Source: Arenicellales bacterium
Lineage (GTDB): Bacteria; Pseudomonadota; Gammaproteobacteria; Arenicellales; JAJDZL01
Assembly: GCA_965220725.1 (NCBI GenBank)
Contig: OZ244840.1
Span: 1,152,548-1,216,547, forward strand
Direction of reading: 5' to 3'
Length of the DNA stretch: 64,000 nucleotides
Shown here: piece by piece, positions 9,628 to 45,200 of the stretch
Layout of the letters: each line of letters begins with the position of its first letter
Position numbering within the stretch: position 1 is the first letter of the stretch
Notes under the pieces: generated by a model
Database searches by the model: none
What the model was told of the DNA's origin: nothing
The model's input: the letters and a program-made list of their open reading frames with translations, nothing else
Translations under genes and position numbers: made by a program

Positions 9628-11079
9628 ATGGAAGTTCATTCACAGGTTGATTACGACACCCGGATTCCGAACAACGTCGGACTGAGTTCGGATCGCAAGG
9701 TTCTAAGGGCCTTGGAAAAATGGCATCCGAATTTTCTTGGTTGGTGGGAAAACCTGATTCCACAGCAGTATCAGAAATCCAAGGTCTATCTTCGAACTGC
9801 TGTCTCAGCGGACTCCAAGGGATGGGCCAAGTTCGACTACGTCAAGATGCCCAGTTACCGTTGGGGCGTCCTGCTCGCGCCACCTCAGGAAGGGCGCACC
9901 GTTCCCTGCGGTGAACATTACAGTGAACCTGCATGGCAGGAAGTGCCTGGTGAGTACCGCAATATGCTCAAGCGGCTGATCGTCATCCAAGGTGATACCG
10001 AACCCGCGTCAGTCGAGCAACAGCATTTGCTTGCGCTGACCGCGCCATCGCTATACGACATGCGTAATCTGTTCCAGGTCAATGTGGAGGAAGGCCGGCA
10101 TCTTTGGGCAATGGTCTATCTGCTGTTCAAATACTTCGGAAGAGATGGACGCGAGGAGGGTGAGGAACTTCTTCGCCGTTCGTCCGGATCCGAAGAGACA
10201 CCGAGACTGCTGGGTGCTTTCAATGAGAAGACTCCCGACTGGCTGTCTTTTTTCATGTTCACCTTTTGCACTGACCGCGATGGGAAGATGCAGTTGGAAA
10301 GTCTGGCGCAGTCCGGATTCGACCCGCTCAGTCGAACCTGTCGCTTCATGCTGACTGAAGAGGCGCATCATATGTTTGTCGGTGAGAATGGTGTGACCAG
10401 AACCATCCAAGCCACCCTGGATGCGATGAACAATGCCGGAATCGACGATCCTTTTGATGTTAATCGAATTCGCTCACTGGGGGTCATTGATCTGCCGACA
10501 ATTCAGAAGAAACTGAATCTGCACTTTTCACTCAGCCTTGATCTGTTCGGTCAGGAAATGTCAACAAATGCTGCTAATGCCTTCAATGCCGGGATCAAGG
10601 GACGCTACATGGAATCCAAACTCGAAGATGACCATCAACTGGCTGGCGATACCTATTCCGTGAGAACAGTCAAAGATGGAAAGATCGTCGCTGAGGACGT
10701 GCCGGCACTGACTGCGATCAACATGCGATTAAGGGACGATTATGTGCAAGATGCCTCAAAAGGCGTCAAGAGGTGGAACAGCCTGATACGACGCAACCAC
10801 ATTCAATTTGAGATGAGACTGCCGAGTGAGGCGTTCCATCGCCAGATTGGTGTCTTTTCGTCAATTCAAGCTGATCTCGAAGGCAACATCATCAGTGAGG
10901 AACAGTGGGATGCAAATGTTGAACAGTGGCTACCCACCCAGGCGGACAGCGATTTCATCCAATCGTTGATGAAACCGTGTTACGAACCGGGGAAGTTTGC
11001 CAGCTGGATTGCCGCGCCGAGAGTCGGCATCAATAACATGCCTGGAGATTTTGAGTACGTCAAACTGCACATGGCTTGA
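9628..11079 (+). CDS. boxB: Benzoyl-CoA 2,3-epoxidase, di-iron oxygenase subunit BoxB
   Basis: 483 aa. It starts with DYDTRIPNNVGLSSDRKVLRALEKWHPNFLGWW and has di-iron EExH-type motifs (VEEGRHLWAM, LTEEAHHMFVG). Confidence 0.85.
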   Translation: MEVHSQVDYDTRIPNNVGLSSDRKVLRALEKWHPNFLGWWENLIPQQYQKSKVYLRTAVSADSKGWAKFDYVKMPSYRWGVLLAPPQEGRTVPCGEHYSEPAWQEVPGEYRNMLKRLIVIQGDTEPASVEQQHLLALTAPSLYDMRNLFQVNVEEGRHLWAMVYLLFKYFGRDGREEGEELLRRSSGSEETPRLLGAFNEKTPDWLSFFMFTFCTDRDGKMQLESLAQSGFDPLSRTCRFMLTEEAHHMFVGENGVTRTIQATLDAMNNAGIDDPFDVNRIRSLGVIDLPTIQKKLNLHFSLSLDLFGQEMSTNAANAFNAGIKGRYMESKLEDDHQLAGDTYSVRTVKDGKIVAEDVPALTAINMRLRDDYVQDASKGVKRWNSLIRRNHIQFEMRLPSEAFHRQIGVFSSIQADLEGNIISEEQWDANVEQWLPTQADSDFIQSLMKPCYEPGKFASWIAAPRVGINNMPGDFEYVKLHMA

Positions 11080-11162
11080 GTTGATCGGCGAATACCGGGG
11101 ATTTCACAGTGCATCATCTTCATTCATCGAATCTTCGCATCTTTTAACCAAGAAAGCTGTTG

Positions 11163-12074
11163 ATGCTTGATTTGTCTTCATTAAACGAATATCAGCGCAA
11201 AGCGGTTACAGAAATAAACCAGTCATTGCTGGTGGTCGCTGGTCCGGGAGCTGGAAAGACTCATGCATTGACTTGGCGAGTAGCGAACACGATCGAAAGC
11301 ACACCTGGCAAGCATTTCCGAATTTTAGGACTCACACTCACAGAAAAAGCAGCGACAGAAATACGAAGAAAATACTTGAGTCTGGTTGATGGTCAGCAAA
11401 ACCGGATTAATCTCACAACGTACCACGGGTTCGCTGCTGAAGTATTACGCCAACACGGCAGTCATATTGGACTGAAGCCTTCGTTTTTGGTTTTTGGGCA
11501 AGATTCTGAACGTAAGGCGTTACTCGAAGATGCAATAAGACTTGTTGACTCCAGTAATCATTTTCCAAATAGCGAACAGTTGCTTCCATTAATTTCCCGA
11601 TTGACAGAAAGTAATGTAGAACCGGAAGACGCGAAGCAAATTCTTGAACAGGGATCGTTTCAACACCCGGAAGAACTAGCACTAATTTATAAAAGCTACC
11701 GCGAGTTGATGATCAAGAACGATCAACTGGATTTCAGTGGATTAATCGCGGAAGCAACAAGTTTACTGAAGCGAAGTTCTGGAATTCGGAAACTTGTCCA
11801 TAAAATCTACACGCATATTTGTGTGGATGAAATCCAAAATATCAATTCCGCGCAGTACAACCTTCTTCTTCAGATTACAAGCACTGAATCAACTGTTCTA
11901 TTTTTTGTAGCTGATGAAGAACAGGTAGTTGACCAGTGGAATGGCGCGAATCCTTCCCGTTTAGACGATGTTCGAAATCATTTTAGGTTGCAACCATTGT
12001 ACTTTCCGGAAACATATCGTTGCCCGCCCGAGATCACTCAAATTGCGGATCGTTTGAATTCTGTTTATCACTGA
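11163..12074 (+). CDS. UvrD/Rep-type SF1 helicase, N-terminal half (motifs Q-IV), ends at an in-frame TGA
   Basis: Motifs are YQRKAV (Q), VVAGPGAGKTHAL (I), TYHGFA, VDEIQNINSAQ (II), VADEEQVVDQWNGAN (III) and YRCPPEI (IV). The stop TGA at 12072-12074 is in the same frame as the next ORF. Confidence 0.8.
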   Translation: MLDLSSLNEYQRKAVTEINQSLLVVAGPGAGKTHALTWRVANTIESTPGKHFRILGLTLTEKAATEIRRKYLSLVDGQQNRINLTTYHGFAAEVLRQHGSHIGLKPSFLVFGQDSERKALLEDAIRLVDSSNHFPNSEQLLPLISRLTESNVEPEDAKQILEQGSFQHPEELALIYKSYRELMIKNDQLDFSGLIAEATSLLKRSSGIRKLVHKIYTHICVDEIQNINSAQYNLLLQITSTESTVLFFVADEEQVVDQWNGANPSRLDDVRNHFRLQPLYFPETYRCPPEITQIADRLNSVYH

Positions 12075-12095
12075 CACCACAGGAAAGAGACTCAG

Positions 12096-15000
12096 ATGAC
12101 TACTCCAACTTCAGATTTCCACGACGAGTCAAGATTTGCGGTGCACGAGTTCGCCAACCTAGATCAAGAGTTGGACTGGGTCACGAACTGCATCGCCAAG
12201 ATTGAGCCGCATGAACGGTGGACCTGTGCTGTCCTGGCGCGTCACAGAAGACTCATTGATCAAGCTGTCAATGCTTTCGAAGAAAAGGGAGTCGCAACGT
12301 ACGATCCTACTCGACCAAATGAGTTCAATAGTTTCGAGTTTAGATGGTTGTACTTCGTCCTTAAACTGGCAAACTCGAGAAGTAATCGTCAGTATTTGCA
12401 AGAAGTGTGTGTTACCTTTCAACATCTGGAAAACACAAAAGTCGATATTGGGTACGTCATCGCGCACGCTTGCATCAACGAAGGAGACTATCTTCGAAGT
12501 TGGGTTGAACTGGTAACCGCGCAGAACAAATTACCGGAACCCACGCTTGAGTTAATCGAGAACTCTCTCAAACCTGACCTACTGGAATTAGTCGATTTCC
12601 GAAAGTTTCAAGCTGCTGCAATTGCTTGGTTTGACGCTCGTTTGAGTTCAGACTCTGATGAAAATGAAGTCCTTCGTCAATACAGAGAGGAAAAGCAGGT
12701 TTGGAATCACTTTGTCCAGACTATCATCCATGACCATAGAGTCGAATTTGCTCCACTTAACACATTCTTGCAGGAGATTGACCTTCAATCACGACCTCCG
12801 ATTAAACAGCCTGATGCAGTAACCTGCGCCACCATACACTCATCCGGAGGGATGAACTTTCGTCACGTCTACCTGATCGGAATGGTTGAAGGTGAACTAC
12901 CGAGTCAGATGGCTTTCAAAAAGGGAAGTGACAGCCGAAAAATGGAAGAAGAGAGAAGAATTTGCTTTACCGCCATCACCCGCACCCAAGATTCGCTGAC
13001 GCTCACCTACTCGAAAGAGGTATTTGGTCAACCAAGTGAACCTTCTCGCTTTCTGTCCTACATGGGACTGATTCAAGACTGTCAATGTGTTAAGTGTCCA
13101 TCAGCAGTTGGACGTCTTTTCGTTAATTCCCAAACCAAGATCGACAAAAACACAGCACTCGAATTATTGCGGAAATTAACAAACGACCCCAATGCCAATT
13201 TTCGAAGTGGTCAATGGGAAGCCATTGACAGACTTGTCAACCATCGAAAGAGTATGGTTGTTGTGCAGAGAACAGGCTGGGGAAAAAGCACTGTTTACTT
13301 TATCGCCACCCGATTCCTTAGGGATCAGGGATTTGGGCCAACTCTCATTGTCTCCCCGCTATTGGCGTTGATGCGCAACCAGATTGAGGCTGCCAGTCGA
13401 CTTGGGCTGCGTGCGGAAACCATAAATTCCTCCAATTCAGACAGATGGGAGGAGATTGGAAACCAAATTGAACAGGACCTCGTTGACGTGGTACTCATCT
13501 CTCCTGAGCGTCTTGCAAACGTCGAATTCATGGAGAATTACCTGCCACGTTTCGTGAAAGGTGTCGGTTTGCTTGTGGTCGATGAGACTCACTGCATTTC
13601 CGATTGTGGACATGACTTTCGCCCCGACTACCGCCGATTTCGGAATCTATTACGATTCATGGGTGATGGACAGTTGATTCTTGGAACAACAGCCACTGCA
13701 AACGACCGCGTCATCGCGGATGTACGCAGTCAACTCGGCAACATTCCAGTGTCTCGAGGCGAATTGCAACGTGAATCCATTTCCTTACAGAACATGTATC
13801 TTCCAACCAAAGTTCAAAGACTGGCTTGGCTTGCCGATCATATTCATGAACTGAATGGTACAGGTATCATCTACACACTGACTGTCCATGACACCGTTGA
13901 GGTATCCAATTGGCTACAGGCGAACGGTGTAGACGCACCGGCCTATTATTCCGGTGTTGTCGCTGAAGGCTTCGATGACTCCGATCAATACCGAAGTCAC
14001 CTCGAATACAAACTTCTTAAAAATGAAGTCAAGGCTTTGGTATCGACTACAGCATTGGGAATGGGATTCGACAAGCCGGACGTTGGATTTGTAGTTCACT
14101 ACCAAATGCCAGGGTCTGTCATTGCATACTATCAACAGGTCGGCAGAGCTGGGCGCGCAATCAAGTCAGCACATGGAATTCTCATGTCAGGTCAGGAAGA
14201 TGATGCGATCAACAAGTTCTTCCGTGAGAGTTCATTTCCGAACGAAATCTGGGTAGAACGAATTCTTCAAGAACTTGATAACAGTGATGGATTGACACTA
14301 TCCGAGCTTGAGTCAAAAATCAATTTGAAGTCGTCGAGAATCGCGCATGTCCTGAAATATCTATCTGTGGTGGAACCTCATTCGCCAGTAACCAAGATTG
14401 GTTACAAGTGGTCTCGTACACCTGTCCATTTCGAACTCGACCGACAGGCAATTCAACGCATCACCAACCAAAGAGAAGATGAATGGCAGGAAATGCAACA
14501 GTACATTGAGGAAAAAAACTGTCTGATGGAATTTCTGTTGAGGTCACTAAATCAACCAAATCCAACCCGTTGTGGGAAGTGCTCGAACTGCTTGGGAAGG
14601 CCGGTTATCGATGAGTCAATTTCTGACGCTACCTTCCAAAAAGCCGTCCAGTTCCTGAGTAACCCCGAAACCAAGCTGAAACCAAAAATTCAAGTTCCCT
14701 ATGGAGTGTTCCCAGAGTATGGATTCCGAGGTAAGTTTCCTGAAAACCTTATACATGAAATCGGCCGAATAATGTCACGCTGGGGTAATTCCGGAGTCGG
14801 AAAGTGGGTGTCGATAGATAAGTACCGAGAACGATATCGAAACGAAATCGTTGACGAAGTTGAACGTATGTACAAAGACAGGTGGCACCCTACACCGAAA
14901 CCAGGATGGATCACTTGCGTCGGGTCGAGAAATGAAAACTGCAACATTACTGATTTCGCCAAACGTCTTTCTGTTGTTCTACGAATACCGTTTCGTCAAG

Positions 15001-15242
15001 TTGTGTTCAGAACAAAAGCCAATGAATATCAAAAGAAACAGCACAACAAATCGCACCAGTGTCGAAATCTTGATGGCGTGTTTGAAATCAGGGGAGAAGT
15101 AGACCCGACTGCGGTGCTTCTGGTTGATGACGTGTACGATTCGGGATGGACACTTGCAATCATTTCAGCCCTGCTTCTGCAGGCAGGCAGTGGCCCGGTT
15201 TTTCCACTTGCATTGGCAAGTGCAACCTCTAAGGACTATTGA
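12096..15242 (+). CDS. Fusion protein: UvrD C-terminal half + RecQ-type SF2 helicase + ComFC-like phosphoribosyltransferase-fold domain
   Basis: - UvrD motifs V/VI: ATIHSSGGMNFRHVYLIGM and EERRICFTAITRTQDSLTLTY.
- RecQ motifs: FRSGQWEAI, VQRTGWGKS, LIVSPLLALMRNQ, VDETHCISDCGHDFRPDY, LGTTATA, STTALGMGFDKPDV and YYQQVGRAGR, plus the Zn motif CLMEF...RCGKCSNC.
- C-terminal PRTase signature: CRNLDGVFEI...VLLVDDVYDSGWTLA. Confidence 0.8.
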   Translation: MTTPTSDFHDESRFAVHEFANLDQELDWVTNCIAKIEPHERWTCAVLARHRRLIDQAVNAFEEKGVATYDPTRPNEFNSFEFRWLYFVLKLANSRSNRQYLQEVCVTFQHLENTKVDIGYVIAHACINEGDYLRSWVELVTAQNKLPEPTLELIENSLKPDLLELVDFRKFQAAAIAWFDARLSSDSDENEVLRQYREEKQVWNHFVQTIIHDHRVEFAPLNTFLQEIDLQSRPPIKQPDAVTCATIHSSGGMNFRHVYLIGMVEGELPSQMAFKKGSDSRKMEEERRICFTAITRTQDSLTLTYSKEVFGQPSEPSRFLSYMGLIQDCQCVKCPSAVGRLFVNSQTKIDKNTALELLRKLTNDPNANFRSGQWEAIDRLVNHRKSMVVVQRTGWGKSTVYFIATRFLRDQGFGPTLIVSPLLALMRNQIEAASRLGLRAETINSSNSDRWEEIGNQIEQDLVDVVLISPERLANVEFMENYLPRFVKGVGLLVVDETHCISDCGHDFRPDYRRFRNLLRFMGDGQLILGTTATANDRVIADVRSQLGNIPVSRGELQRESISLQNMYLPTKVQRLAWLADHIHELNGTGIIYTLTVHDTVEVSNWLQANGVDAPAYYSGVVAEGFDDSDQYRSHLEYKLLKNEVKALVSTTALGMGFDKPDVGFVVHYQMPGSVIAYYQQVGRAGRAIKSAHGILMSGQEDDAINKFFRESSFPNEIWVERILQELDNSDGLTLSELESKINLKSSRIAHVLKYLSVVEPHSPVTKIGYKWSRTPVHFELDRQAIQRITNQREDEWQEMQQYIEEKNCLMEFLLRSLNQPNPTRCGKCSNCLGRPVIDESISDATFQKAVQFLSNPETKLKPKIQVPYGVFPEYGFRGKFPENLIHEIGRIMSRWGNSGVGKWVSIDKYRERYRNEIVDEVERMYKDRWHPTPKPGWITCVGSRNENCNITDFAKRLSVVLRIPFRQVVFRTKANEYQKKQHNKSHQCRNLDGVFEIRGEVDPTAVLLVDDVYDSGWTLAIISALLLQAGSGPVFPLALASATSKDY

Positions 15243-15243
15243 C

Positions 15244-16824
15244 ATGGAAATCAGTCGCGAATGTAAAGTTGCAATTCACTTGACCGGACGTTTCGGGAAG
15301 TTCGAAGGTGAACAATTCGACCCACTGAAGTCAAGTGAGTGGCATGAGTTTTGCGATTGGTTGAGTCAAAACAGCGTAGCGATTGGTGATTTGAACGAAA
15401 TGACAGTAATGGAATTACCGATTGATTGGGAAGAGATCAATTTAACTCCTGAACGAATAAGAGATCTCTTGAAGCGAAGATTTGTCTCAGATGAGAAAGT
15501 TCAACGCTGGGTTAGCGCAGGCTTGTGGATGTTGACCTTATCAGACGAATCCTATCCGAAGGAACTTATGGAAAGACTACAAGATAAGTCGCCACCAGTT
15601 CTATACGGAAGTGGAAATCCCGAATTATTGAATCTTCGCGGCGTCGCGATAGTCGGATCAAGAAATGCAGATGCCAGTGATCTAGAATACTCTACGGAAC
15701 TCGCCAAAGATTTGGCTGGTTGCGATTATTCGATCATCTCGGGCGGCGCCCGAGGTGTAGACCAAGCTGCGATGCTTGGAGCGCTGGAAAATGGTGGAAA
15801 GTCTGTCGGTGTGCTAGCAGATAAATTATTGCAATCAACTACCTCATCGCTGTATCGAAAGCATTTGGTTTCTGGTGATTTGGTATTGGTTTCACCTTTT
15901 CATCCCGAAACTAGTTTCACCGCCTGGAATGCAATGGCTCGGAATCACATCATCTATGCCCTTGCTCAGTCAGCAGTTGTCATTACCTGTGATGAGAATA
16001 GCGGAGGCAGCTGGCGCGGTGCGATAGACAATTTGAACTCTGACTGGACTATTCCGTTGTGGGTCAAAAGGTCTGGAAATGCAGCACTGCATGAGTTAGG
16101 CGCATTCTGGCTGCCCGATAACGGAGCGAACTCAATCGTTGGTTACCTCGACACACCTGAGTTGAGTGATCATGAAGAAGTTTTCTTTGACTTGTTTTTA
16201 CGCGTGACGCGAAAGTTCCTGTTTGATGGGCCTAGGAAACTAAAAGAAATAACTGATCATTTTCTCCAGTACGAACTTTCGACAAGTCAAATACGTCACT
16301 GGCTCAATCAGGCTGTCGATAGCGGATTTGTGGAACAAGGAACTGTCGCTCCAGGCAAGTATTCTTTTCCCCAAACAGTCACGAATTACTTCGAATTGTT
16401 TAGATTTAGACTTGAAGATTTACTTTCTGATGGTCCAAAAAAGATTCAAAATATTTCTAAGCACTTCTCCGAAACAGGATTATCTGAAAGTCAAGTTCGG
16501 GTGTGGTTGAATCAAGCATCGTACGAAGGATTCGTGAAGAAAAAGGGGGGCAAACGTGCAGAGTACGCTCTTGTAACCTCTAATTCTATTTTTTTCGAAT
16601 TTTTCACTAGTCACATGCAAAACTTTCTATCGGAAGGTCATAAGAGTCTGCAAGAGACATTCGATCACTGTGCGCAGTTTGACTTGTCCAACCAACAAGT
16701 TCGTGTTTGGTTGGGTCAAGCAGTGGATCAAGGTTCAATCGAAAAAAAGAAAGTAAGCGGAAAAGTGGCATACGGTTCATTTGACAATCAAAAACCGAAA
16801 CAGGGTGAGCTTCCTTTGGGATAA
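15244..16824 (+). CDS. DprA/Smf-family DNA-processing protein with three tandem C-terminal winged-helix modules
   Basis: ATG 15244 lies 1 nt after the upstream stop (the ORF track start at 15124 overlaps the previous gene). The DprA signature is LSDESYPKELMERLQDKSPPVLYGSGNPELL, VAIVGSRNA, IISGGARGVDQAAMLGAL and NAMARNHIIYAL. Confidence 0.8.
   Translation: MEISRECKVAIHLTGRFGKFEGEQFDPLKSSEWHEFCDWLSQNSVAIGDLNEMTVMELPIDWEEINLTPERIRDLLKRRFVSDEKVQRWVSAGLWMLTLSDESYPKELMERLQDKSPPVLYGSGNPELLNLRGVAIVGSRNADASDLEYSTELAKDLAGCDYSIISGGARGVDQAAMLGALENGGKSVGVLADKLLQSTTSSLYRKHLVSGDLVLVSPFHPETSFTAWNAMARNHIIYALAQSAVVITCDENSGGSWRGAIDNLNSDWTIPLWVKRSGNAALHELGAFWLPDNGANSIVGYLDTPELSDHEEVFFDLFLRVTRKFLFDGPRKLKEITDHFLQYELSTSQIRHWLNQAVDSGFVEQGTVAPGKYSFPQTVTNYFELFRFRLEDLLSDGPKKIQNISKHFSETGLSESQVRVWLNQASYEGFVKKKGGKRAEYALVTSNSIFFEFFTSHMQNFLSEGHKSLQETFDHCAQFDLSNQQVRVWLGQAVDQGSIEKKKVSGKVAYGSFDNQKPKQGELPLG
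16180..16779 (+). repeat. Three tandem ~62-65-codon protein repeats (DprA_WH-like wHTH) inside the DprA gene
   Basis: The three units are:
- FFDLFLRVTRKFLFDGPRKLKEITDHF..LSTSQIRHWLNQAVDSGFVEQ
- YFELFRFRLEDLLSDGPKKIQNISKHF..LSESQVRVWLNQASYEGFVKK
- FFEFFTSHMQNFLSEGHKSLQETFDHC..LSNQQVRVWLGQAVDQGSIEK. Confidence 0.7.
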
Positions 16825-16845
16825 AGTCAATTCCTCACCGCAAAC

Positions 16846-16875
16846 AAAAAAGCCCTGCCGAAGCAGGGCTTTTTT
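16846..16875. terminator. Bidirectional rho-independent terminator between the DprA gene and groEL
   Basis: aaaaa-AGCCCTGC-cgaa-GCAGGGCT-ttttt: a perfect 8-bp GC-rich stem with a 4-nt loop, an A-run on one side and a T-run on the other. Confidence 0.8.
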
Positions 16876-16894
16876 CATCCGATCAACGGAATGA

Positions 16895-18556
<1,662 letters not shown>

Positions 18557-19076: not shown

Positions 19077-19238
19077 CTGTTAGTTTGAAAATATTGTTTG
19101 GATGGCTGTGGAGGACGAACGAATTTAGAGTGTTGCATTGTCTGCTCCCGTTTTCATTTTGATTAGGGTAATTCAACTCAGGCAAATACTACAGACTATG
19201 ACTCCAGAACTCTGCATTGGAATTTACCAGTTAAAAAT

Positions 19239-19976
19239 CCTGTGATGTGTTGAAACACGACAACATTTCGGATTCTTTGGCAGGGCGGATGCGCATCAAT
19301 CCGATCGATTTACTCAAGGTACTACTTTCCGTTGATTTGACTGCCGGCACACATGCTGAACCGGATAAACCATACATGCAACGACTCATGGCTGGAGGTT
19401 TCCCTGCGGCATTGGAGTTACCGCATGGATCTCACTGGAACAAGTAGTTTGATGACTATTCCCAGATAGTGATTGACCAATACTTACGTGCTCTTTCCTG
19501 AATTCATAGGATCGCCAGTTTTCCCCAACTCTTGGAGTCAACGGCTGCTAACACATCAAGTCTCCTTAATTCCAGTTTATTGGCATCACCGCTGAAAGAA
19601 AGTCATCCATTCGCGGAACAGTTTATCATTCTGCTAGAACAGGTTTTTCTTCTTGAACAATATACCTCCGTGGTACAAAGCCGGGAGCAAACGACTGGTG
19701 AAGAGACCGAAACTGCATCTACTACATACCGGAGTGGCAGCATCTGATTTGAAGATGAACAGTCAATCTATGAAAAACAAAGTTTCGGTAATGGGAAAAC
19801 TGCTGGAATCATTTTTAGTTCAGGCACGAAAACGGCAAGCAAGTTGAAATGACGATCGGTTAGCGTTTTCTCACTTTCGCGACAGGAGCGGTCTGGAAGT
19901 CGAACTCGTCATAGAGGATGACAATCTGTCATTCACTGGTGTTGATGTCAAGGCTGCAAGAACCGTCAATAAACGT
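19239..19976 (+). pseudogene. Decayed, 5'-truncated paralogue of the DUF4143 ATPase gene at 21989-23293
   Basis: It aligns at the nucleotide level with about 22356-23130 (cctgtgatgtgttgaaacacgacaacatttcggattctttggcagggcggatgcgcatca...). It carries stops, frameshifts and a ~40-nt internal deletion, and it lacks the P-loop region. Confidence 0.8.
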
Positions 19977-20307
19977 GAGTATTGATTTAATGACAAATGA
20001 ATAAATTATGATTCTGTATCGCAGACGCACCCATGAGTTCTCGAGAATTTTTGGCAGAATATCCATAAATTTTGCTTTAGCCTATGTGCACGAAAAAGAT
20101 GAAGGTTTCGATATTGAAATTTTCACTTGGAATACAAGTCGCATAGTCGTGAATCAAGGATTTCCTAAGTGTATTGGTTCGTGAACCAGTACATAGAGAC
20201 CGTCTACAGATAGATATAATTTACACTTGAACTGATGGTGCAGAATTAGGTTTTTAGAGAACTGGAAGTGAACTAACCGATCTCAAATTCTTGAGGGTAT
20301 ATTAAAC

Positions 20308-21117
20308 TTGAACACAAAAATAGATAAAGACTTTGATACCGCTTTTAAACTTGACAAAAATAAACTTGAGAATTTGTGCAATTTACTTCGCGATAGAGTT
20401 GGAGACATCAAATTAATCGCAAAGTGTAATGACTATGCAGTGCGGGAATTTGAGTCCTTCGAAGAAATTGAGAAATTCGATAATACAGATGATTGCAAAA
20501 TAATTGAATTAACAATTTCCTCAGTCTCGCAGAGTGACACACGTCTTTACGCAAAGATCAATTTCGAATCAGAAACAAAATCAAAATATTCAAAATTCCA
20601 TAGTTTTAGTTCGAGTAAGATTTATGTCACCGGAAGGGATGCGGACGTACGAGTCCTCTGTTCCGATATAGAAAATAAAATTAATATGCTACGCCCTTGG
20701 TACTTCCGCTATTCAAAAATTAAAGGAACCTACATTTCAACTGTGTTTCTTATTTCAATTTTCATCATCGCTTACGTTGGACATGTTTACGTTAGACAAA
20801 GTTACTTCGGACTTCCGGACTCCTTAGAAATTGACAGAACAACTACTCTACATGAGTATGTCCAAATGTTTCTAAATGTGATGTTGTTTTTCTTTATTTT
20901 TTCGGTCTCTTACTCGATTTTATCTCCCTTTCTCAATTCACTATGTTCGTGGCTCTTTGGATTGAGAATCAAGTATTTTCCTTCGGGCGTAATCTTGCTC
21001 GGCCATCAGTTGACCAATGAGAGTGATTTAGATAAAACACGCCGAGCATTTCTAATTTGGGTGAAAGGTTCTATTGCAACGGCTGTTTTAGCTTTGGTAG
21101 TTTCTGTCGTGGATTGA
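20308..21117 (+). CDS. Hypothetical membrane protein (soluble N-domain + ~3 TM helices), very AT-rich
   Basis: TTG start. There is no recognisable motif in the first ~140 aa. Hydrophobic segments are ISTVFLISIFIIAYVGHVYV, MFLNVMLFFFIFSVSYSILSPFL and FLIWVKGSIATAVLALVVSVV. One 60-nt line I counted (20341-20400) has 18 G+C. Confidence 0.5.
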   Translation: MNTKIDKDFDTAFKLDKNKLENLCNLLRDRVGDIKLIAKCNDYAVREFESFEEIEKFDNTDDCKIIELTISSVSQSDTRLYAKINFESETKSKYSKFHSFSSSKIYVTGRDADVRVLCSDIENKINMLRPWYFRYSKIKGTYISTVFLISIFIIAYVGHVYVRQSYFGLPDSLEIDRTTTLHEYVQMFLNVMLFFFIFSVSYSILSPFLNSLCSWLFGLRIKYFPSGVILLGHQLTNESDLDKTRRAFLIWVKGSIATAVLALVVSVVD

Positions 21118-21154
21118 GCAAGACAGCATTATTGGATAGCGGCAACATTACACT

Positions 21155-21480
21155 TTAGCTAGTTGTGGGAGTGTGTTTGCTCATTAGACTAGATTTAGTC
21201 ACCAGATTAATCGAGTTAGCCATCCCATGATACCGAAGACCGCCAACATTAAAACCAGATGCAACACAATGTGAAACAAAGGTGGCGTTGCGCTTGGCAG
21301 TGATGGTCGGCATGGCCGTCAGTGAGGTGCGTTCCGGCAATCCACAACGGATGCGCTCGCTGACGTTGCCGTTGGCAGCTTAGGGCATCCCGCAAATTCC
21401 CTGAACCGATCATGCCCGCAGCGCCCGGCAGGGTGGGACGCGCTTCGGATCCGGATCTGCACGACCAGCTGATGTCGAAA
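21155..21480 (-). pseudogene. Fragment of a TrpB2-like (PLP-dependent) gene
   Basis: [22 protein letters not shown] parallels [22 protein letters not shown] of the intact gene at 27709-29067. Upstream, in another frame, SEARPTLPG parallels [12 protein letters not shown]. The fragment is frameshifted and truncated, and it forms a locally GC-rich patch in AT-rich surroundings. Confidence 0.45.
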
Positions 21481-21873
21481 CCTGAAAAAACCATAGTTTC
21501 GCGCCCGCGAGAGCCTCGCTTTCGGAAAATGTCAGAGATTTTCATCAGTGAATTTTGGAACATCCCATGAAATTTGCTAATCTGCACGGACCAACGAAAC
21601 TGACTAAAAAATTGTTTGGATGGTTGTGGAGGACGAACGGATTTCGAGTGTTGCGCTTTGTGAATACAGATTGGTCTCCTCTTGCAATTGCTTGGTCGAA
21701 ACGAATTTGAAAGTCTCTGGTGTGTTCGAATATCCAAAGAAGCGACTCAGACAAATGCCGCTCACTACAGCAACAGAACTCTGAAATGGAACCTAACTAG
21801 TAAGGCATCGTCAATTTGACTGCGCTATTTCGACTAAGCCGACATAGATCGCAGGTTTCAGAGAAGTTATTAT

Positions 21874-21955
21874 TTTCATTTAGCCAACAATGATTTTTCA
21901 AAATGCCTATACTATTTTTTCATTCAGCCAATAATGAATCTTCAGTTTGCCTTAG
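21874..21955 (+). repeat. Array A: four 16-nt direct repeats at exact 22-nt phasing (consensus TTTCAnTnnGCCnAnA)
   Basis: The four repeats are 21874 tttcatttagccaaca, 21896 tttcaaaatgcctata, 21918 tttcattcagccaata and 21940 cttcagtttgccttag. The array ends 34 nt before ATG 21989. Confidence 0.75.
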
Positions 21956-21988
21956 TTTGTCTGCAAGGAGAATGTCCTAGAACTTACC

Positions 21989-23293
21989 ATGCCAAGTAAC
22001 AGCTACTACCCTCGTTACATACATCACCAAGTAGTTGAAGCACTGGAATATTCTCCAGTTGTGCTGATCCAAGGTCCGAGACAGTGTGGGAAGTCGACAC
22101 TCGCTCGAACGTTTCTTGATCCTAAGGATGGTGGCCAGGAATCGAGTACTGAGCAGAAATTCAATGCAAACCGCTACATCACTTTTGATGATCCGGAACA
22201 ACGTGAATTGGCTGATTTTGCTCCTTCAGGCTATCTCGCCTCATTGCCCGACAAAGTGATATTCGACGAAGTCCAAAAGGCTCCGCAACTGTTTGAAGCC
22301 ATCAAGATGTATGTTGACCGCAATCGCAGACCAGGAATGTTTCTGTTGACGGGTTCCTGTGATGTATTGAAACAAGACAACATTTCGGATTCTTTGGCAG
22401 GGCGGATGCGCATCATTCGGATGGACCCTCTGGCACAGTGCGAAATAGAGCAAACCCGACCGAATTTACTCGATGTACTCCTTTCCGGTGAGATAACTAT
22501 CGGCAGATATGCTGAGCCGGATAAACCATTCATACAACGACTCACAGCTGGAGGTTACCCTGATGTATTGAAGTTGCCGCGTGAATCTCTCCGGATCAAG
22601 TGGTATGACGACTATTCCCGATCAATGATTGACCGAGACCTACGGGATATTTCCCGAATTCACAGTATCGCCAGCTTGCCCCAGCTCTTGGAGTCAGCGG
22701 CGGCTAACACATCAAGCCTCCTTAATTCCAGTTCACTGGCATCGCCGCTGAAAGAGAGTCATCCAACCGTGAAAAAGTTTATCTTTCTGCTTGAGCAGAT
22801 TTTTCTTCTTGAACGTTTACGTGCGTGGTACAAAGATGGAAGCAAGCGACTGGTGAAGAGACCAAAACTGCATGTACTGGATACCGGAGTCATAGCATCT
22901 CTCCTGAACATGAACAGCGAGACTCTAGAAAACAATGTTCCAATATTGGGAAAACTGCTGGAATCATTTGTAGTTCAGGAACTAAAACGGCAAGCAAGTT
23001 GGTATGACGGTCGGTTATCGTTTTCTCACTTCCGAGACAGAAGCGGTCTGAAAGTCGACCTCGTCATAGAAGACGACAATCTGTCAGTCGCCGGTATTGA
23101 CGTCAAGGCTGCGAGAACCGTCAGTAAACATGACTTCAAGGGATTGAGAAAACTGGCACAACTGAACGGGGAGAAGTTTGTTGGTGGTATAGTGCTGTAC
23201 GATGGCGACACTTGCAGCGCCTTCGGAAAAGGACTCTTTGCTGTGCCTTTGCGAAGTTTGTGGGAACCTCTTCCGGAGTGGCCTTCCTGGTAA
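21989..23293 (+). CDS. AAA+ ATPase, AAA_14/DUF4143 family
   Basis: It has a P-loop (IQGPRQCGKSTLA) and Walker B (VIFDEVQKAP). The DUF4143-like C-terminal half shows KRPKLHVLDTGVIASLL and GKLLESFVVQELKRQ. Confidence 0.8.
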   Translation: MPSNSYYPRYIHHQVVEALEYSPVVLIQGPRQCGKSTLARTFLDPKDGGQESSTEQKFNANRYITFDDPEQRELADFAPSGYLASLPDKVIFDEVQKAPQLFEAIKMYVDRNRRPGMFLLTGSCDVLKQDNISDSLAGRMRIIRMDPLAQCEIEQTRPNLLDVLLSGEITIGRYAEPDKPFIQRLTAGGYPDVLKLPRESLRIKWYDDYSRSMIDRDLRDISRIHSIASLPQLLESAAANTSSLLNSSSLASPLKESHPTVKKFIFLLEQIFLLERLRAWYKDGSKRLVKRPKLHVLDTGVIASLLNMNSETLENNVPILGKLLESFVVQELKRQASWYDGRLSFSHFRDRSGLKVDLVIEDDNLSVAGIDVKAARTVSKHDFKGLRKLAQLNGEKFVGGIVLYDGDTCSAFGKGLFAVPLRSLWEPLPEWPSW

Positions 23294-39216: not shown

Positions 39217-42200
39217 ATGGACAATTCGAATATCAGACGCCGAATCCGCAACAGCAATCAAACCAATCACCCTGAAACCAACTCTAGCGCATTTTCGGAG
39301 TTGTTGCAAAAAATCAGCGGTAATATTCCTGATCCTCACACCTACAACATGGCAGTTCATCTCAGCTCATTGGACCGGGTGTTGCCCGACGATGTCGGTC
39401 ACGGCCTGCCGGTGGTTGTGGACATGGATGGCGATGGCATCGAGCTGGCCGGTCTGGATGAGAGTCTCACCACCTTTGACTTTGACGATGACGGTTATCT
39501 GGAGCGTACTGCGTGGACGACGGGTGATGACGCCCTGCTGGTGTTCGATGTCGGCGGCGACGGTGAGGTGACGCAGGCAAAGGAAATCGCGTTCGCGCAG
39601 TGGACCGATGCGGATGACACCGATCTTGAGGCGCTGGCTGCGCAGTTCGACAGCAACAGCGACGGCGTGCTGGATGACAACGACACGCAATGGAACGGAT
39701 TCCGGCTGTGGCAGGATCTTGACCGCGACGGTGCGGTGGATGCCGGTGAGATGGTGACGCTTGACGCGGCGGGGATTGAGTCGATCGGCCTGAACGTGCG
39801 CGCGGGCAGCGGCCAGGTGATGTCAGATGGTACGGTGATACACGGCCTGGTGGATGTGCATCACACGGACGGCACGGTCACGGACGGAGCGGACGCGTCG
39901 CTTGCCTACGACACGGCGGGTTACCGTTCTTATGAGGATGATGACGGCAACATCGTCCATGAGTTCGAGGACGCTGATGTGCAGACGATCCGCAGGCTCG
40001 GTGAGACCGAAGTGGATTTCGACTTGGGGGGTGATACGGGCAACTGGGCCGGCGCACAGGGCAATGCCCTGGCCAACCATCTTGATGGTTCCGGTCGGAC
40101 CGGGACGGTGGTGCTGAGCGGCGGTGGTGGCGATGACACGCTGAGCGGCGGTTCGGGCGATGATTATCTGATCGGCGGCGAGGGCGCCGACCGTCTCGAG
40201 GGTGGCGACGGCAGTGATGTCCTCTATGTGGACGCGGCTGACCTGGGTGTTGCCGATGGAGTCGACGCTGGCGGCGGCTATGACCTGCTGATCATGACCG
40301 ACAGCACAGCCCTCGATCTGGATGTGGATGATCTGGATGTCGAGGCGGTGCTTGCATCGGCTGGCGATGATGTGATCAGTGGCTCGCGGGATGATGTGGG
40401 CTATTTTCTTTTCGGTGGTGCGGGTAATGACACGCTGACGGGCGGCGGCGGCAACGACAGTCTGCACGGAGGCGATGGTGTTGACACACTGGCCGGCGGT
40501 GACGGCGATGACCTGCTGATTGGCGGCGCTGGAAACGACGTTCTTCAGGGCGGTGCCGGCAATGACACTTACGTGTATGTCCGGGGCGACGGGCAGGACC
40601 GGATCCTGGATGATGCGGCAGATGGTGACGGTGGTAGCGACACACTGCAGTTCGGTGGCGGCATCACGCTGTCTGACATCGTGCTCAGTCACAGTATTAC
40701 AAATGATCCTTCCTCCATCGAGGACATGGTGGTTTATCTTCGCGATGCGGATAATCCGGATGCATTGGGTGAGAAGGTCATCACGATAGTCGGCGGCTGG
40801 GGCTGGAGTGGTTCGGGCAACCGGATTGAGTCTCTGGCATTTGCCGATGGCAGCTGGCTGGATATCAGCACCTTGAAGTTCGGTCTGCGCGTGACAGATG
40901 GCAGCAATTCGTTGCTCGGTACGGGGGACGGAGATTTCATTTCAGGCAGCGGTGGAGCCGACACCCTGAACGGAGGTGGCGGCGATGATGTGATCCTCGG
41001 CGGTGAGGGTGATGATCTTTTGATCAGCGGCGGTGCCGGCAATGACCGGCTGTACGGTGAAGGCGGCAACGACACAATTCAAGGCGGACAGGGAAATGAC
41101 ATCCTGATTGGCGGCAAAGACAACGATACGCTTGCCGGCGGTGCCGAAGGCGATACCTACGTATTCAACCGTGGCGACGGACAGGATACCATTGAGGAAA
41201 ACGCGGGTCAGGGCGGAGGTACCGATACGCTTCAGTTTGGTGCTGGGATTTCATTGTCTGACATCGTGCTCAGCCACTCGGAACCCGGCCTGGTGATCAC
41301 GCTGCGTGATGCGGATGATGAGGATGCATTGAGTGCAGATGCCATCACAGTCTCCGAGTGGTCGGACTCGGACAGCCGCATTGAAATCCTTTCCTTTGCC
41401 GATGGCAGCCGGTTGGATATCAGCGGTCTGAAGAGCGTGTGGCATGGAACAGATCTTGCCAATACGCCAAGCGCTACTGAAGAGGGCGACTTTCTTTCAG
41501 GTGGCGGTGGTGACGACACCCTGAACGGCCTTGGCGGCGATGACGTGCTCATCGGCGGTTCCGGTGATGATGATCTTCACGGCGGCAGCGGCAATGACAC
41601 CCTGGTGGGTGACAGCGGTGATGATGATCTTCTGGGTGGGGCCGGCGATGACACCTACGTTTATGTCTGGGGTGACGGACAGGATACGATTGTGGATCAT
41701 GCGCCAGGGGGCGGCGGCACCGACACACTGCGCTTCGGTACCGGAATCACCCTGTCAGACATCGTGCTCGGTCAGGGATTCTCCCTGCGCAACGGTGCCT
41801 TCCTGGTGGACATGACGATTCATCTTCGGGGTCTGGATGATGCGGACACCCTGGAAAAGGCTGTGACGATTGCTGGGGGCTGGGGCCGGTTCGCGACGGG
41901 CTACCGGATTGAGACACTGGCCTTTGCTGATGGCTCCACGCTTGACATCAGCGCGCTCAATCGCGCAATGCATGGACTGGAAGGAGTCAACACCCTGGAA
42001 GGTGAGTCCGGGAATGACTTTCTTTCCGGTGGTGGCGGCAACGACACTCTGGACGGTGGTGGTGGCGATGACGTGCTGCTTGGCGGTGGCGGCGATGACA
42101 CCTACCGGTATGCCCGGGGTGACGGACAGGACATGATCGTGGACCGGGCGCCGCGGGGCGATCGGAACGGCGGTATCGACACACTTGAGTTCGGTACCGA

Positions 42201-45200
42201 TATCGCACTGTCCGACATCGTGCTCAGCCGCTCGGGTGATGACCTGGTGATCAGCCTGCGTGACCGGACTGACCCGGATGCATTGAGTGGGGATTCCATC
42301 ACGGTCAGCGGCTGGTCGGACCTGGGGAACCGGATTGAGTCTCTTGTCCTTGACGATGGCGGCATACTGGATATCAGCGGTGTGGACAACGGGTTGCACA
42401 GTTTGGGTGGAGGCGATGATCTAACCGGCTCGGACGGGAATGATTTCCTGTCAGGCGGTGGCGGCAACGACACTCTCGAAGGTGGTGCGGGTGATGACTT
42501 TCTAGTCGGCGGTACCGGCAATGATGTTCTCACCGGTGGTGGCGGTGATGATGTCTACCTCTTCAATCGCGGCGATGGACATGACACGATTGCCGAGCAG
42601 CCGGCAGGAGATGCCGGTACCGATACGCTACGCTTCGGTGCCGGGATCGCGGTGTCCGACATCGTGCTTGCCCGTTCGGGGGATGACATGGTGATCTCCC
42701 TGCGAGACGCGACTGATTCGACCAAGTTGAGCGGGGATTCAATCACGGTTACTGACTGGTTGGACGCAAACAACCGGATCAGCTATCTTTCCTTCGCCGA
42801 TGGCACCAGACTCGACGTCGGCGGCATCCTGAGGGGACTCCATGGTCTGGCGGGTGACGACACGGTGTCCGGCCCGGCCGGCTCAACCGACGGGTATTTT
42901 TTGTCCGGCGGTGAGGGTGACGACACCCTAACCGGACAGGGTGGTGATGACCTGATCATCAGCGGTGAGGACAATGACACCCTGGCGGGCGGTGAGGGTG
43001 CGGATGTGCTGTATGGCGGAGCCGGCAATGACAGCTATGAGTTTGCCCGTGGCGACGGACAGGACATGATCGTTGACCGGGCGGAACAGGAAGACATAGA
43101 GGGTGGAGCCGATGAGGTGAGGTTCAAAACCGGGATTGCGGTGTCCGACATCGTGCTCGGCCGCTCGGGCGATGACCTGGTGATCACCCTGCGCGACGGG
43201 ACTGATGCGGGTGCGCTGAGTGCGGATGCCGTCACGGTCTCCGGCTGGTCGGATGCGGACAACAGGATTGAGACGCTTTTCTTTGCCGACAACAGGCGAC
43301 TGGACATCAGCGGTGTGGAGTACGGCCGGCACGGACTGGATGGCGACGATCAGGTGACCGGCTCGGCTGGGAACGATTTTCTCTCAGGCGGCGACGGCGA
43401 TGACATCCTGCGAGGCGGTGCGGGCGATGATGTCCTCGTCGGTGGTCTGGGCGATGACGTCTACATCTTCAACCGCGGCGACGGACGGGACACGGTTGCG
43501 GCGCAGTCGGCACAGGATACCGGCACCGATACCCTGCGCTTCGGAGCCGGGATTGCGGTGTCCGACATCGTGCTCGCCCGCTCGGGCGATGACCTGGTGA
43601 TCTCCGTGCGCGACGCGCAGGATGCGGACGCACTGAGCGGGGATTCGGTCACGGTCATCGGCTGGTCGGACGCGGCGAACCGGATCGGATATCTCGCCTT
43701 TGACGATGGCACCAGAATTGATATCAGCAACATATCGAAAGCCCAGCATGGATTGGCGGATGACAACACACTGACGGGCACCACCGAGGTTGAATTTCTT
43801 TCCGGCGGTGCTGGAAATGACACGCTGGAAGGCGATGGCGGCGGTGATGTGATCATCGGCGGTGCCGGTGATGACACCCTGGATGGCGGCGGCGGTGATG
43901 ACGACCTGCACGGCGGTGCCGGTGATGACACCTACGTCTATGCCCGGGGCAGTGGACACGACAGGATTCTGGATCATGCGGTACAGGGTGATGGCGGCAC
44001 CGATATGATTAAGTTCGGCACCGGCATTGCCCTGTCTGACATCGTACTCGCGCACAGTCCATCAACCAGTATCCACAGTTCCGGTTACGAAGACATGACG
44101 ATCCACCTGCGCGATGCGAACAGTGCGGATACGGTGGACGCCAAGTCCATCACGATTGTTGGCGGCTGGAGCGGTTCGGGTAACCGGATCGAGGTTCTCG
44201 CCTTTGCCGATGGCACCCGGGTGGACATCAGCAACCTGAGATATGGCTGGCACGGAACAGGTGGTGTCGATGTCAGAGACGGTATCGACGATGGGGGTGA
44301 TTTTCTCTCAGGCGGTGGCGGCGTCGACACCCTCAACGGTCTTGGCGGCGATGACCTGATCCTCGGCGGTGCGGGTGATGATGTGATCGGCGGCGGTGCC
44401 GGCGGTGACCGTCTGTACGGCGAGGGCGGTGCCGACGATCTTGCCGGCGGACTGGGGGCTGATTATCTATATGGTGGCGATGGCAAGGACAGACTTGCCG
44501 GCGGCGGCGGTGACGACCTGCTCACCGGTGGCGGTGGTGACGATGACCTTCGCGGCGGTGAGGGTGATGACACCTATATCCATGCCCGGGGCGATGGACA
44601 CGACACAATTGAGGACCATACGGCACACGCTGACGGCGGCAGCGACACGCTCGAGTTCGGGACCGGCATAGACCTGTCTGACATTGTGCTAGTTCACGGC
44701 CAGGCGCAGGAGGACATGGTGATTCATCTGCGCGCAGCGGATGATCCGGACGTATTGAGCGCAAAGGCCATCACGATTGTCGGAGGCTGGGGCGGATTCG
44801 GTTCGGGCAACCGGATCGAGTATCTCGCCTTTGCCGATGGCAGCCGGCTGGACATCAGCCGCCTGGAGCGGGGCTGGCATGGAACAGGCGGTGTAGATGC
44901 GAAGGACGGCACCGCTCTGGGTGATTTTCTATCAGGCGGTGGCGGCAAAGACACTCTGGATGGAAAGGGCGGCGATGACGTGATCCTCGGCGGTGAAGGT
45001 GACGATACGATGATCAGCGGCGGTGCCGGCAATGATCGACTGTACGGCGAAAGCGGCAATGACAAACTGTTCGGTGGTGCCAGCGATGACATCCTGACCG
45101 GTGGCAGCGGCAACGATGAGCTCTACGGCGGTGGCGGTGATGACACCTACGTCTATTCGCGAGGCGACGGCCAGGACACGATCGAGGATCATGCGCCACA

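Follow-up and report, generated by a model that had tools for sequence, protein, structure and literature searches.

RecQ-type helicases with a ComF-like phosphoribosyltransferase (PRTase) domain at the C-terminus are known from several bacteria. In Mycobacterium smegmatis, where this architecture was described and the C-terminal domain was termed ComF-like, RqlH is an active 3'-5' helicase and the C-terminal domain is dispensable for unwinding (Ordonez et al. 2012, PMC3378886). RqlH of Escherichia coli is genotoxic via its PRTase domain, and both the exchange D663A and the replacement of DIVD by EVME abolish toxicity. The DprA-like protein RqlI neutralises this toxicity; its co-precipitation with RqlH is lost when RqlH residues 510-690, which include the PRTase domain, are removed, and many genomes harbour rqlH without rqlI (Russell and Mulvey 2015, PMC4670107). 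Under the name PsyrTA, the RqlHI pair is among the toxin-antitoxin systems protecting against phage (Millman et al. 2022, bioRxiv 10.1101/2022.05.11.491447). In the related ShosTA system, toxicity of ShosT requires binding of phosphoribosyl pyrophosphate (PRPP) (PMC12961424; for ShosTA see also PMC11961720). Here we analysed a stretch of 64,000 nt of contig OZ244840.1 from an Arenicellales bacterium (GCA_965220725.1), hereafter the window. Its open reading frame (ORF) 12096..15242 on the plus strand encodes a protein of 1048 amino acids (aa), which very probably is the toxin PsyrT (RqlH) of a PsyrTA/RqlHI module of the abortive-infection type, with the antitoxin PsyrA (RqlI) encoded downstream. 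At this locus the toxin is fused to a split GajB-like helicase.

The assignment is based on the match of residues 351-1047 to the PADLOC model PsyrT PDLC03928 (model positions 5-688 of 689, E 1.8e-265, 880 bits). The downstream ORF was placed by the gene callers in the same orientation, with its start at 15244, 1 nt past the psyrT stop. It matches PADLOC PsyrA (E 2.4e-117, 390 bits) and Pfam DNA_processg_A, the DprA family (E 6.1e-39). In the 1048-aa ORF, Pfam recognised UvrD_C at residues 13-307 (E 2.1e-19), DEAD at 371-541 (E 7.5e-21) and Helicase_C at 579-688 (E 8.6e-12), and the core motifs GWGKS and VDETHC of a RecQ-like superfamily 2 (SF2) helicase are found. Approximately 100 residues past Helicase_C, RecQ_Zn_bind is matched at residues 790-833 (E 2e-6), and the cysteines of this zinc module are at least 90% conserved in an alignment of 47 C-terminal pieces of homologues (alignment A3).

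A preliminary description of this DNA quoted a peptide which is the C-terminus of the 1048-aa protein, and interpreted it as a ComFC-like PRTase-fold domain attached to a RecQ-type helicase. The last approximately 200 residues gave only a weak, sub-threshold match to Pfam Pribosyltran (E 0.005), although this domain is recorded for many homologues. The top PRTase-type profile was NCBIfam comF TIGR00201 (E 3.4e-8, model positions 115-189 of 190; score 33.7 bits, cut-off 233.55), followed by NCBIfam GntX (E 2e-7). Since a sequence search of the domain against PDB chains returned noise alone (E >= 0.15), its fold had to be derived from a structural model and Foldseek. The AlphaFold2 model of residues 795-1048, computed with alignment A3 as input, reached a mean pLDDT (predicted local distance difference test) of 88.4 and a pTM (predicted template modelling score) of 0.75. 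In the comparison with the PDB, ComF of Helicobacter pylori (7P0H) ranked first (E 4e-5), and further matches were APRT, OPRT, HGPRT and PurF PRTases and the defence toxin ShosT (8ZVB/8ZVD), in line with the link to defence-associated PRTases drawn in the preliminary description. Both sequence elements which had been taken there as typical of ComF-type PRTases lie in stretches with strictly kept residues in the 47 homologues. Invariant are Q979, N984, Q988 and N991 in the pattern Q-K-x3-N-x3-Q-x2-N, which holds the element R-N-L-x-G-x-F, and V1007, L1008, L1009, D1011, D1012, D1015, S1016 and W1018 in the PRPP loop V-L-L-x-D-D-x-x-D-S-x-W. The stretch D-V-Y-D (1012-1015) corresponds at the motif level to the DIVD663 stretch of E. 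coli RqlH. The comF profile, the model and the Foldseek ranking thus bear out the ComFC-like fold, and two outcomes named beforehand as speaking against it, an unrelated fold and an unconserved PRPP loop, did not occur. The end of the protein is also unlike that of canonical RecQ, as had been proposed: no Pfam match to HRDC was found in the 1048-aa ORF, and the PRTase fold is found instead. A bona fide ComF was not found in the same genome, in which the best match to the comF model is this domain itself.

While the structural assignment stands, the novelty implied for the RecQ-PRTase fusion does not. The fusion of RecQ to a ComF-like PRTase is the defining architecture of RqlH/PsyrT and was already published (PMC3378886, PMC4670107, bioRxiv 10.1101/2022.05.11.491447); neither this family nor the downstream antitoxin had been named in the preliminary description. 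New at the locus is only the fusion of PsyrT to a split GajB-like helicase, together with a PsyrA containing three winged helices. The coordinates are given in Table 1.

Table 1. Features assigned to the psyrT-psyrA locus of the window.
Feature	Coordinates	Strand	Remarks
Split GajB-like UvrD/superfamily 1 (SF1) helicase, N-terminal fragment, 303 aa, domains 1A/1B, motifs Q to IV	11163..12074	+	Stops at in-frame TGA
Lone in-frame TGA splitting the GajB-like helicase	12072..12074	+	ATG 12096 follows 21 nt further on, after an AGGA/GAG-rich stretch
GajB-like helicase, C-terminal half, domains 2A/2B, motifs V and VI (residues 1-329 of the 1048-aa ORF)	12096..13082	+	
19-residue linker between GajB-like helicase and PsyrT	13083..13139	+	Stands in place of the helicase stop codon and the psyrT promoter, ribosome-binding site (RBS) and start codon
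PsyrT/RqlH RecQ-like SF2 motor with family-specific linker/winged-helix region	13140..14519	+	PADLOC PsyrT, Pfam DEAD, Helicase_C
RecQ-type zinc-binding motif, four cysteines (C809, C826, C829, C832)	14520..14591	+	RecQ_Zn_bind E 2e-6
ComF-like PRTase C-domain, residues ~849-1048	14640..15242	+	Profile, structure model, motif conservation
R-N-L-D-G-V-F element of the PRTase domain	15063-15083	+	
PRPP loop VLLVDDVYDSGWT of the PRTase domain	15114-15152	+	
psyrA/rqlI, predicted DprA-like antitoxin, 526 aa	15244..16824	+	PADLOC PsyrA, Pfam DNA_processg_A

A database survey of RecQ-PRTase fusions and their neighbours confirmed how regular this arrangement is. It comprised 80 loci encoding the C-domain, taken from species-representative genomes. 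The RecQ core is co-linear with the C-domain in 79 of the 80 loci and psyrA lies directly downstream in 76; among the remaining four, a contig edge truncates at least one. The loci span many phyla, including Pseudomonadota, Chloroflexota, Acidobacteriota, Gemmatimonadota, Bacteroidota, Cyanobacteriota, Bacillota and Planctomycetota, and none of the 80 contains a GajB-like sequence near psyrT. Thousands of PsyrT homologues are present in a collection of 5.8 billion proteins, nearly all of them approximately 699 aa long. In the genus of the window the C-domain is distributed patchily (7 of 31 genomes), as expected for an accessory defence gene.

The nearest PsyrT is a stand-alone protein of 701 aa (P0002, locus L001) with 88% identity. 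At L001, genes for an enoyl-CoA hydratase-family (ECH) protein and a PaaA/BoxB-like protein are followed by psyrT, psyrA, groEL and groES, which is the same context as in the window, where the locus lies between a box-type CoA pathway and groESL. The GroEL of the window clusters with a metagenome-assembled genome labelled Acidiferrobacterales. The ratios of non-synonymous to synonymous substitution rates (dN/dS) against L001 are 0.12 for psyrT and 0.17 for psyrA, so at the sequence level both genes are under purifying selection. Their synonymous divergence (dS) amounts to 0.50 and 1.65, respectively, while that of the flanking core genes is 3 to 15 times lower (0.10-0.14). PsyrA is only 61% identical to its L001 counterpart, although PsyrT is 88% identical. 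Together with the raised dS, this fits the exchange of cassettes at a fixed locus, as expected for defence genes.

The predicted antitoxin itself is unusual in size. E. coli RqlI has 400 aa and one putative C-terminal helix-turn-helix (PMC4670107), and the PADLOC PsyrA model has 398 positions, compared with 526 aa in the window. At the C-terminus we found three tandem winged-helix-like repeats of approximately 65 aa each (16180-16779, residues ~313-512), with the pattern F-F/E-x-F...GPxKxxEI...QxRxWLxQAxxxGxV. The PADLOC model of ShosA also matches this protein (E 1.7e-25).

The sequence upstream of psyrT belongs to a different defence system. The 303-aa fragment and the first part of the 1048-aa ORF match one and the same PADLOC GajB model (PDLC00114, 635 positions) co-linearly across the stop codon: the former covers model positions 1-298 (E 4.5e-101, 337 bits), and residues 9-327 of the latter cover positions 319-633 (E 6.6e-90, 300 bits). 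The fragment also matches Pfam UvrD-helicase (E 4.6e-53), and the two pieces are in one frame, parted by the single TGA. Closest to this helicase are proteins of approximately 638 aa (41-45% identity), encoded by bona fide gajB genes overlapping gajA, the gene for the OLD ATPase with a TOPRIM domain, at two loci (L011, L012); at a third (L013), gajA is disrupted by insertion sequence elements. In the window there is no room for gajA, since the helicase start follows the upstream core gene at a distance of only 80 nt, and GajA/OLD-TOPRIM (PF20469) was not found in the whole 2.94-Mb single-contig genome, which is 98% complete, while the control genomes were matched. According to alignment A4, the catalytic residues of the helicase are kept, namely Walker A GKT, D-E of motif II, Q of motif III, Y-R of motif IV and T-R of motif VI.

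The comparison with L001, which lacks the helicase gene and in which psyrT has its own ATG after an intergenic region of 154 nt, delimits the insert. DNA homology breaks off at 11079, exactly at the stop codon of the upstream gene, and returns at 13139, at psyrT codon 3. Thus, in the window lineage a segment of 2.06 kb, consisting of a GajB-like gene without GajA, appears to have replaced the promoter, the RBS and the start codon of psyrT. Between M322 and L358 there is no in-frame ATG, GTG or TTG, and no Shine-Dalgarno (SD) sequence precedes M322; an SD-like AGGAAAGAG is found upstream of ATG 12096. Because the own start was replaced and no alternative in-frame start exists up to L358, PsyrT should be translatable only as a fusion with the helicase domains 2A/2B from ATG 12096, or by read-through of the TGA. 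Recoding of this TGA as selenocysteine or tryptophan was considered and rejected: TGA ends the neighbouring gene, the aligned residue in homologues is Asn, not Cys or Trp, and UvrD proteins are not known as selenoproteins. Since TGA also closes the upstream gene (11077-11079), it is an ordinary stop codon in this genome. An assembly error was rejected as well, because the TGA is present in a 100% identical sequence (L002) and in the lineage described next.

This second lineage (L097, an 813-kb ENA contig) is approximately 95% identical to the window over 13 kb, with the identical layout of 303 + 1048 + 526 aa and the identical TGA. From 9628 to 18523, neither an indel nor an additional stop was found between the two. 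The N-terminal helicase fragment differs by 10 non-synonymous and 18 synonymous changes (dN/dS 0.15, binomial p versus neutrality 2.7e-6), the C-terminal half by 46 and 53 (dN/dS 0.20, p 3.6e-12). The divergence is distributed unevenly. In a block of approximately 700 nt (12291-13000), corresponding to the 2B-domain region of the helicase, it reaches approximately 13%, the 293 nt around the TGA (11998-12290) are identical, and psyrT is nearly identical (>99% identity, dS 0.006-0.02). This mosaic indicates that recombination is active at the locus, and the divergent block suggests allele exchange or diversifying turnover of the 2B-region domain.

Fusions of an SF1 helicase to PsyrT were also found outside the window lineage. 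P0187 is a UvrD-like::PsyrT protein of 1441 aa with psyrA directly downstream (L094, L095), and P0132-P0142 (1225-1905 aa) combine PsyrT with SF1 helicases of the AAA_11/AAA_12 type, P0134 being Upf1-like, likewise with psyrA downstream (L096). All these ORFs are uninterrupted. Since their helicase modules are not orthologous to that of the window, they represent independent fusions. As further architectures, we noticed an Hsp70/MreB-like::PsyrT fusion (P0125) and two proteins with a DprA domain N-terminal to PsyrT (P0126, 995 aa; P0152, 1220 aa), which are antitoxin-toxin single chains.

How should the split helicase be interpreted? We lean slightly to the view that both fragments come together again as a functional second motor or sensor and are not a dead remnant. 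A more specific proposal, which we make tentatively and would not bet on at even odds, is a working hybrid of two defence systems, in which a two-polypeptide GajB-derived SF1 helicase has exchanged GajA for a covalently attached PsyrT toxin, resulting in a double-motor sensor-effector held in check by the triple-winged-helix PsyrA. The competing explanation is that the GajB-like sequence is the decaying remnant of a Gabija operon. In that case PsyrT would merely be preceded by approximately 330 non-functional residues, and the 303-aa ORF would be a piece of a pseudogene. This explanation has a substantial chance of being correct, though again somewhat below even. It would readily account for the in-frame TGA, for the missing GajA and for the fact that the closest relative L001 manages without the insert. 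However, decay is difficult to reconcile with the low dN/dS of both helicase halves between the two lineages, with the lack of indels and of a second stop despite the strong divergence of the 2B block, with the retention of every catalytic motif residue and with the SD-like sequence ahead of ATG 12096. Moreover, intact SF1::PsyrT fusions have evolved independently outside the window lineage. Several observations nevertheless weigh against a functional second motor. Besides having a stop codon, the GajB-like part is changed at many positions which are near-invariant in bona fide GajB (DEFQDTN is changed to DEIQNIN, and ADDDQIIYQWNGA to ADEEQVVDQWNGA), as would be expected for a remnant. Further, the identity of the 293 nt around the TGA in both lineages means that the TGA may be young; recombination could have distributed it only lately, and the signal of purifying selection may then predate it. 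A reservation of a different kind concerns PsyrT itself. In an alignment with 117 more distant homologues, 233 columns show a conservation of at least 97%; the PsyrT of the window differs in 22 of them, nearly all of these deviations being common to P0002. At residue 504 (13605-13607), in the aromatic-rich loop SDCGHDFRPDY, Cys replaces a Trp which is invariant in the 117 homologues and kept in P0002 of L001; the window shares this Cys with L097, the other helicase-fused lineage. The aromatic-rich loop of E. coli RecQ couples DNA binding to ATP hydrolysis. Thus, this exchange may weaken the RecQ motor in the fused lineage.

The assignment as a toxin has to be weighed against two other roles. 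The protein could be a housekeeping helicase for repair or recombination, as RqlH may be in actinobacteria without RqlI, with a ComF-like domain serving DNA or protein interaction instead of toxicity. Such a role would agree with the helicase activity of M. smegmatis RqlH, for which the C-domain is dispensable (PMC3378886), and with the many genomes carrying rqlH but not rqlI (PMC4670107). Here, however, psyrT is accompanied by an antitoxin gene in translational coupling, it is an accessory gene in the genus, the divergence of the cassette far exceeds that of its flanks and a defence-type island follows a few kb downstream; we therefore consider a housekeeping role improbable. Still less probable, and in our opinion hardly credible, is a ComFC-like role in natural transformation, in which the domain and the DprA-like neighbour would jointly handle single-stranded DNA (ssDNA) at uptake. 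ComF ranks first among the structural and profile matches, and it belongs, like DprA, to the competence proteins, which PMC4670107 discusses as a parallel, but the comF score reaches only 33 bits where the cut-off is 233, adjacent ComFA or other competence genes are absent, and toxin-antitoxin and defence behaviour of the family was shown experimentally (PMC4670107; Millman et al. 2022).

For a PsyrTA module, a mechanism can be outlined by analogy. As in the characterised homologues, the RecQ-like motor would translocate in 3'-5' direction on ssDNA, and the ComF-like domain would bind PRPP through the VLLVDD-x-x-DS-x-WT loop and act as the genotoxic effector. PsyrA would bind the PRTase domain and keep the toxin in check, until phage infection frees it, probably via phage ssDNA or recombination intermediates engaging the DprA-like antitoxin. 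The freed toxin would then cause DNA damage and growth arrest.

In the neighbourhood of the locus, the defence-type island includes genes for a DUF4143 ATPase, a YhcG-like protein and an N6_Mtase (Pfam labels from the collinear L001 genes). Between the groES upstream region and the gene of the DUF4143 ATPase, a segment of approximately 2.9 kb (19120-22004) has no counterpart at L001, where this distance is approximately 230 nt. It contains an ORF of 269 aa (20308-21117) without Pfam match and with predicted membrane-like stretches. Farther downstream, an ORF of 3994 aa (39217-51201) is located in a region of high GC content (0.60-0.62) with a strong positive GC skew.

The significance of the locus lies in the combination of its parts. 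It shows a defence helicase of the GajB type captured by a different toxin module, a natural case of the shuffling of modules that has been proposed for defence systems, and possibly a naturally split SF1 helicase under purifying selection in two lineages. Since SF1::PsyrT fusions recur elsewhere with intact frames, a second motor may genuinely belong to PsyrTA as an accessory not described so far, and may alter what the system senses. If the working hybrid proposed above is true, the intact fusions would define an unrecognised "two-motor PsyrTA" subtype. They share with the window the extra SF1 motor N-terminal to a complete PsyrT and the psyrA gene directly downstream, but their ORFs are uninterrupted, whereas the helicase of the window is split by the TGA.

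Among the described systems, RqlH-RqlI/PsyrT-PsyrA (Ordonez et al. 2012; Sberro et al. 2013; Russell and Mulvey 2015; Millman et al. 2022) is the closest. Shared are the RecQ-like motor, the family linker, the four-cysteine zinc module, the ComF-like PRTase domain and the DprA-like gene immediately downstream, and both proteins are full-length matches to the hidden Markov models. The window differs by the N-terminal fusion to GajB-like 2A/2B domains, the lack of an own psyrT start, the TGA-split helicase, the 526-aa PsyrA with its three winged-helix repeats and the exchange of Trp for Cys in the aromatic loop. With the Gabija protein GajB it shares a helicase that matches the PADLOC GajB models over the full length, but GajA was not found in the genome, and the helicase is interrupted by a stop and covalently joined to PsyrT. 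ComFC/ComF (7P0H, TIGR00201) has the same PRTase-like fold preceded by a cysteine-rich zinc element; it is, however, a stand-alone protein of approximately 200-250 aa encoded in competence operons, whereas the domain described here is part of a 1048-aa protein, scores far below the family cut-off and stands in a toxin context. In ShosTA (8ZVB/8ZVD), a PRTase-domain toxin is likewise combined with a DprA-like antitoxin, but ShosT has no helicase, unlike PsyrT of the window, and ShosA reportedly acts via RecA and ssDNA without binding ShosT, whereas RqlI binds RqlH.

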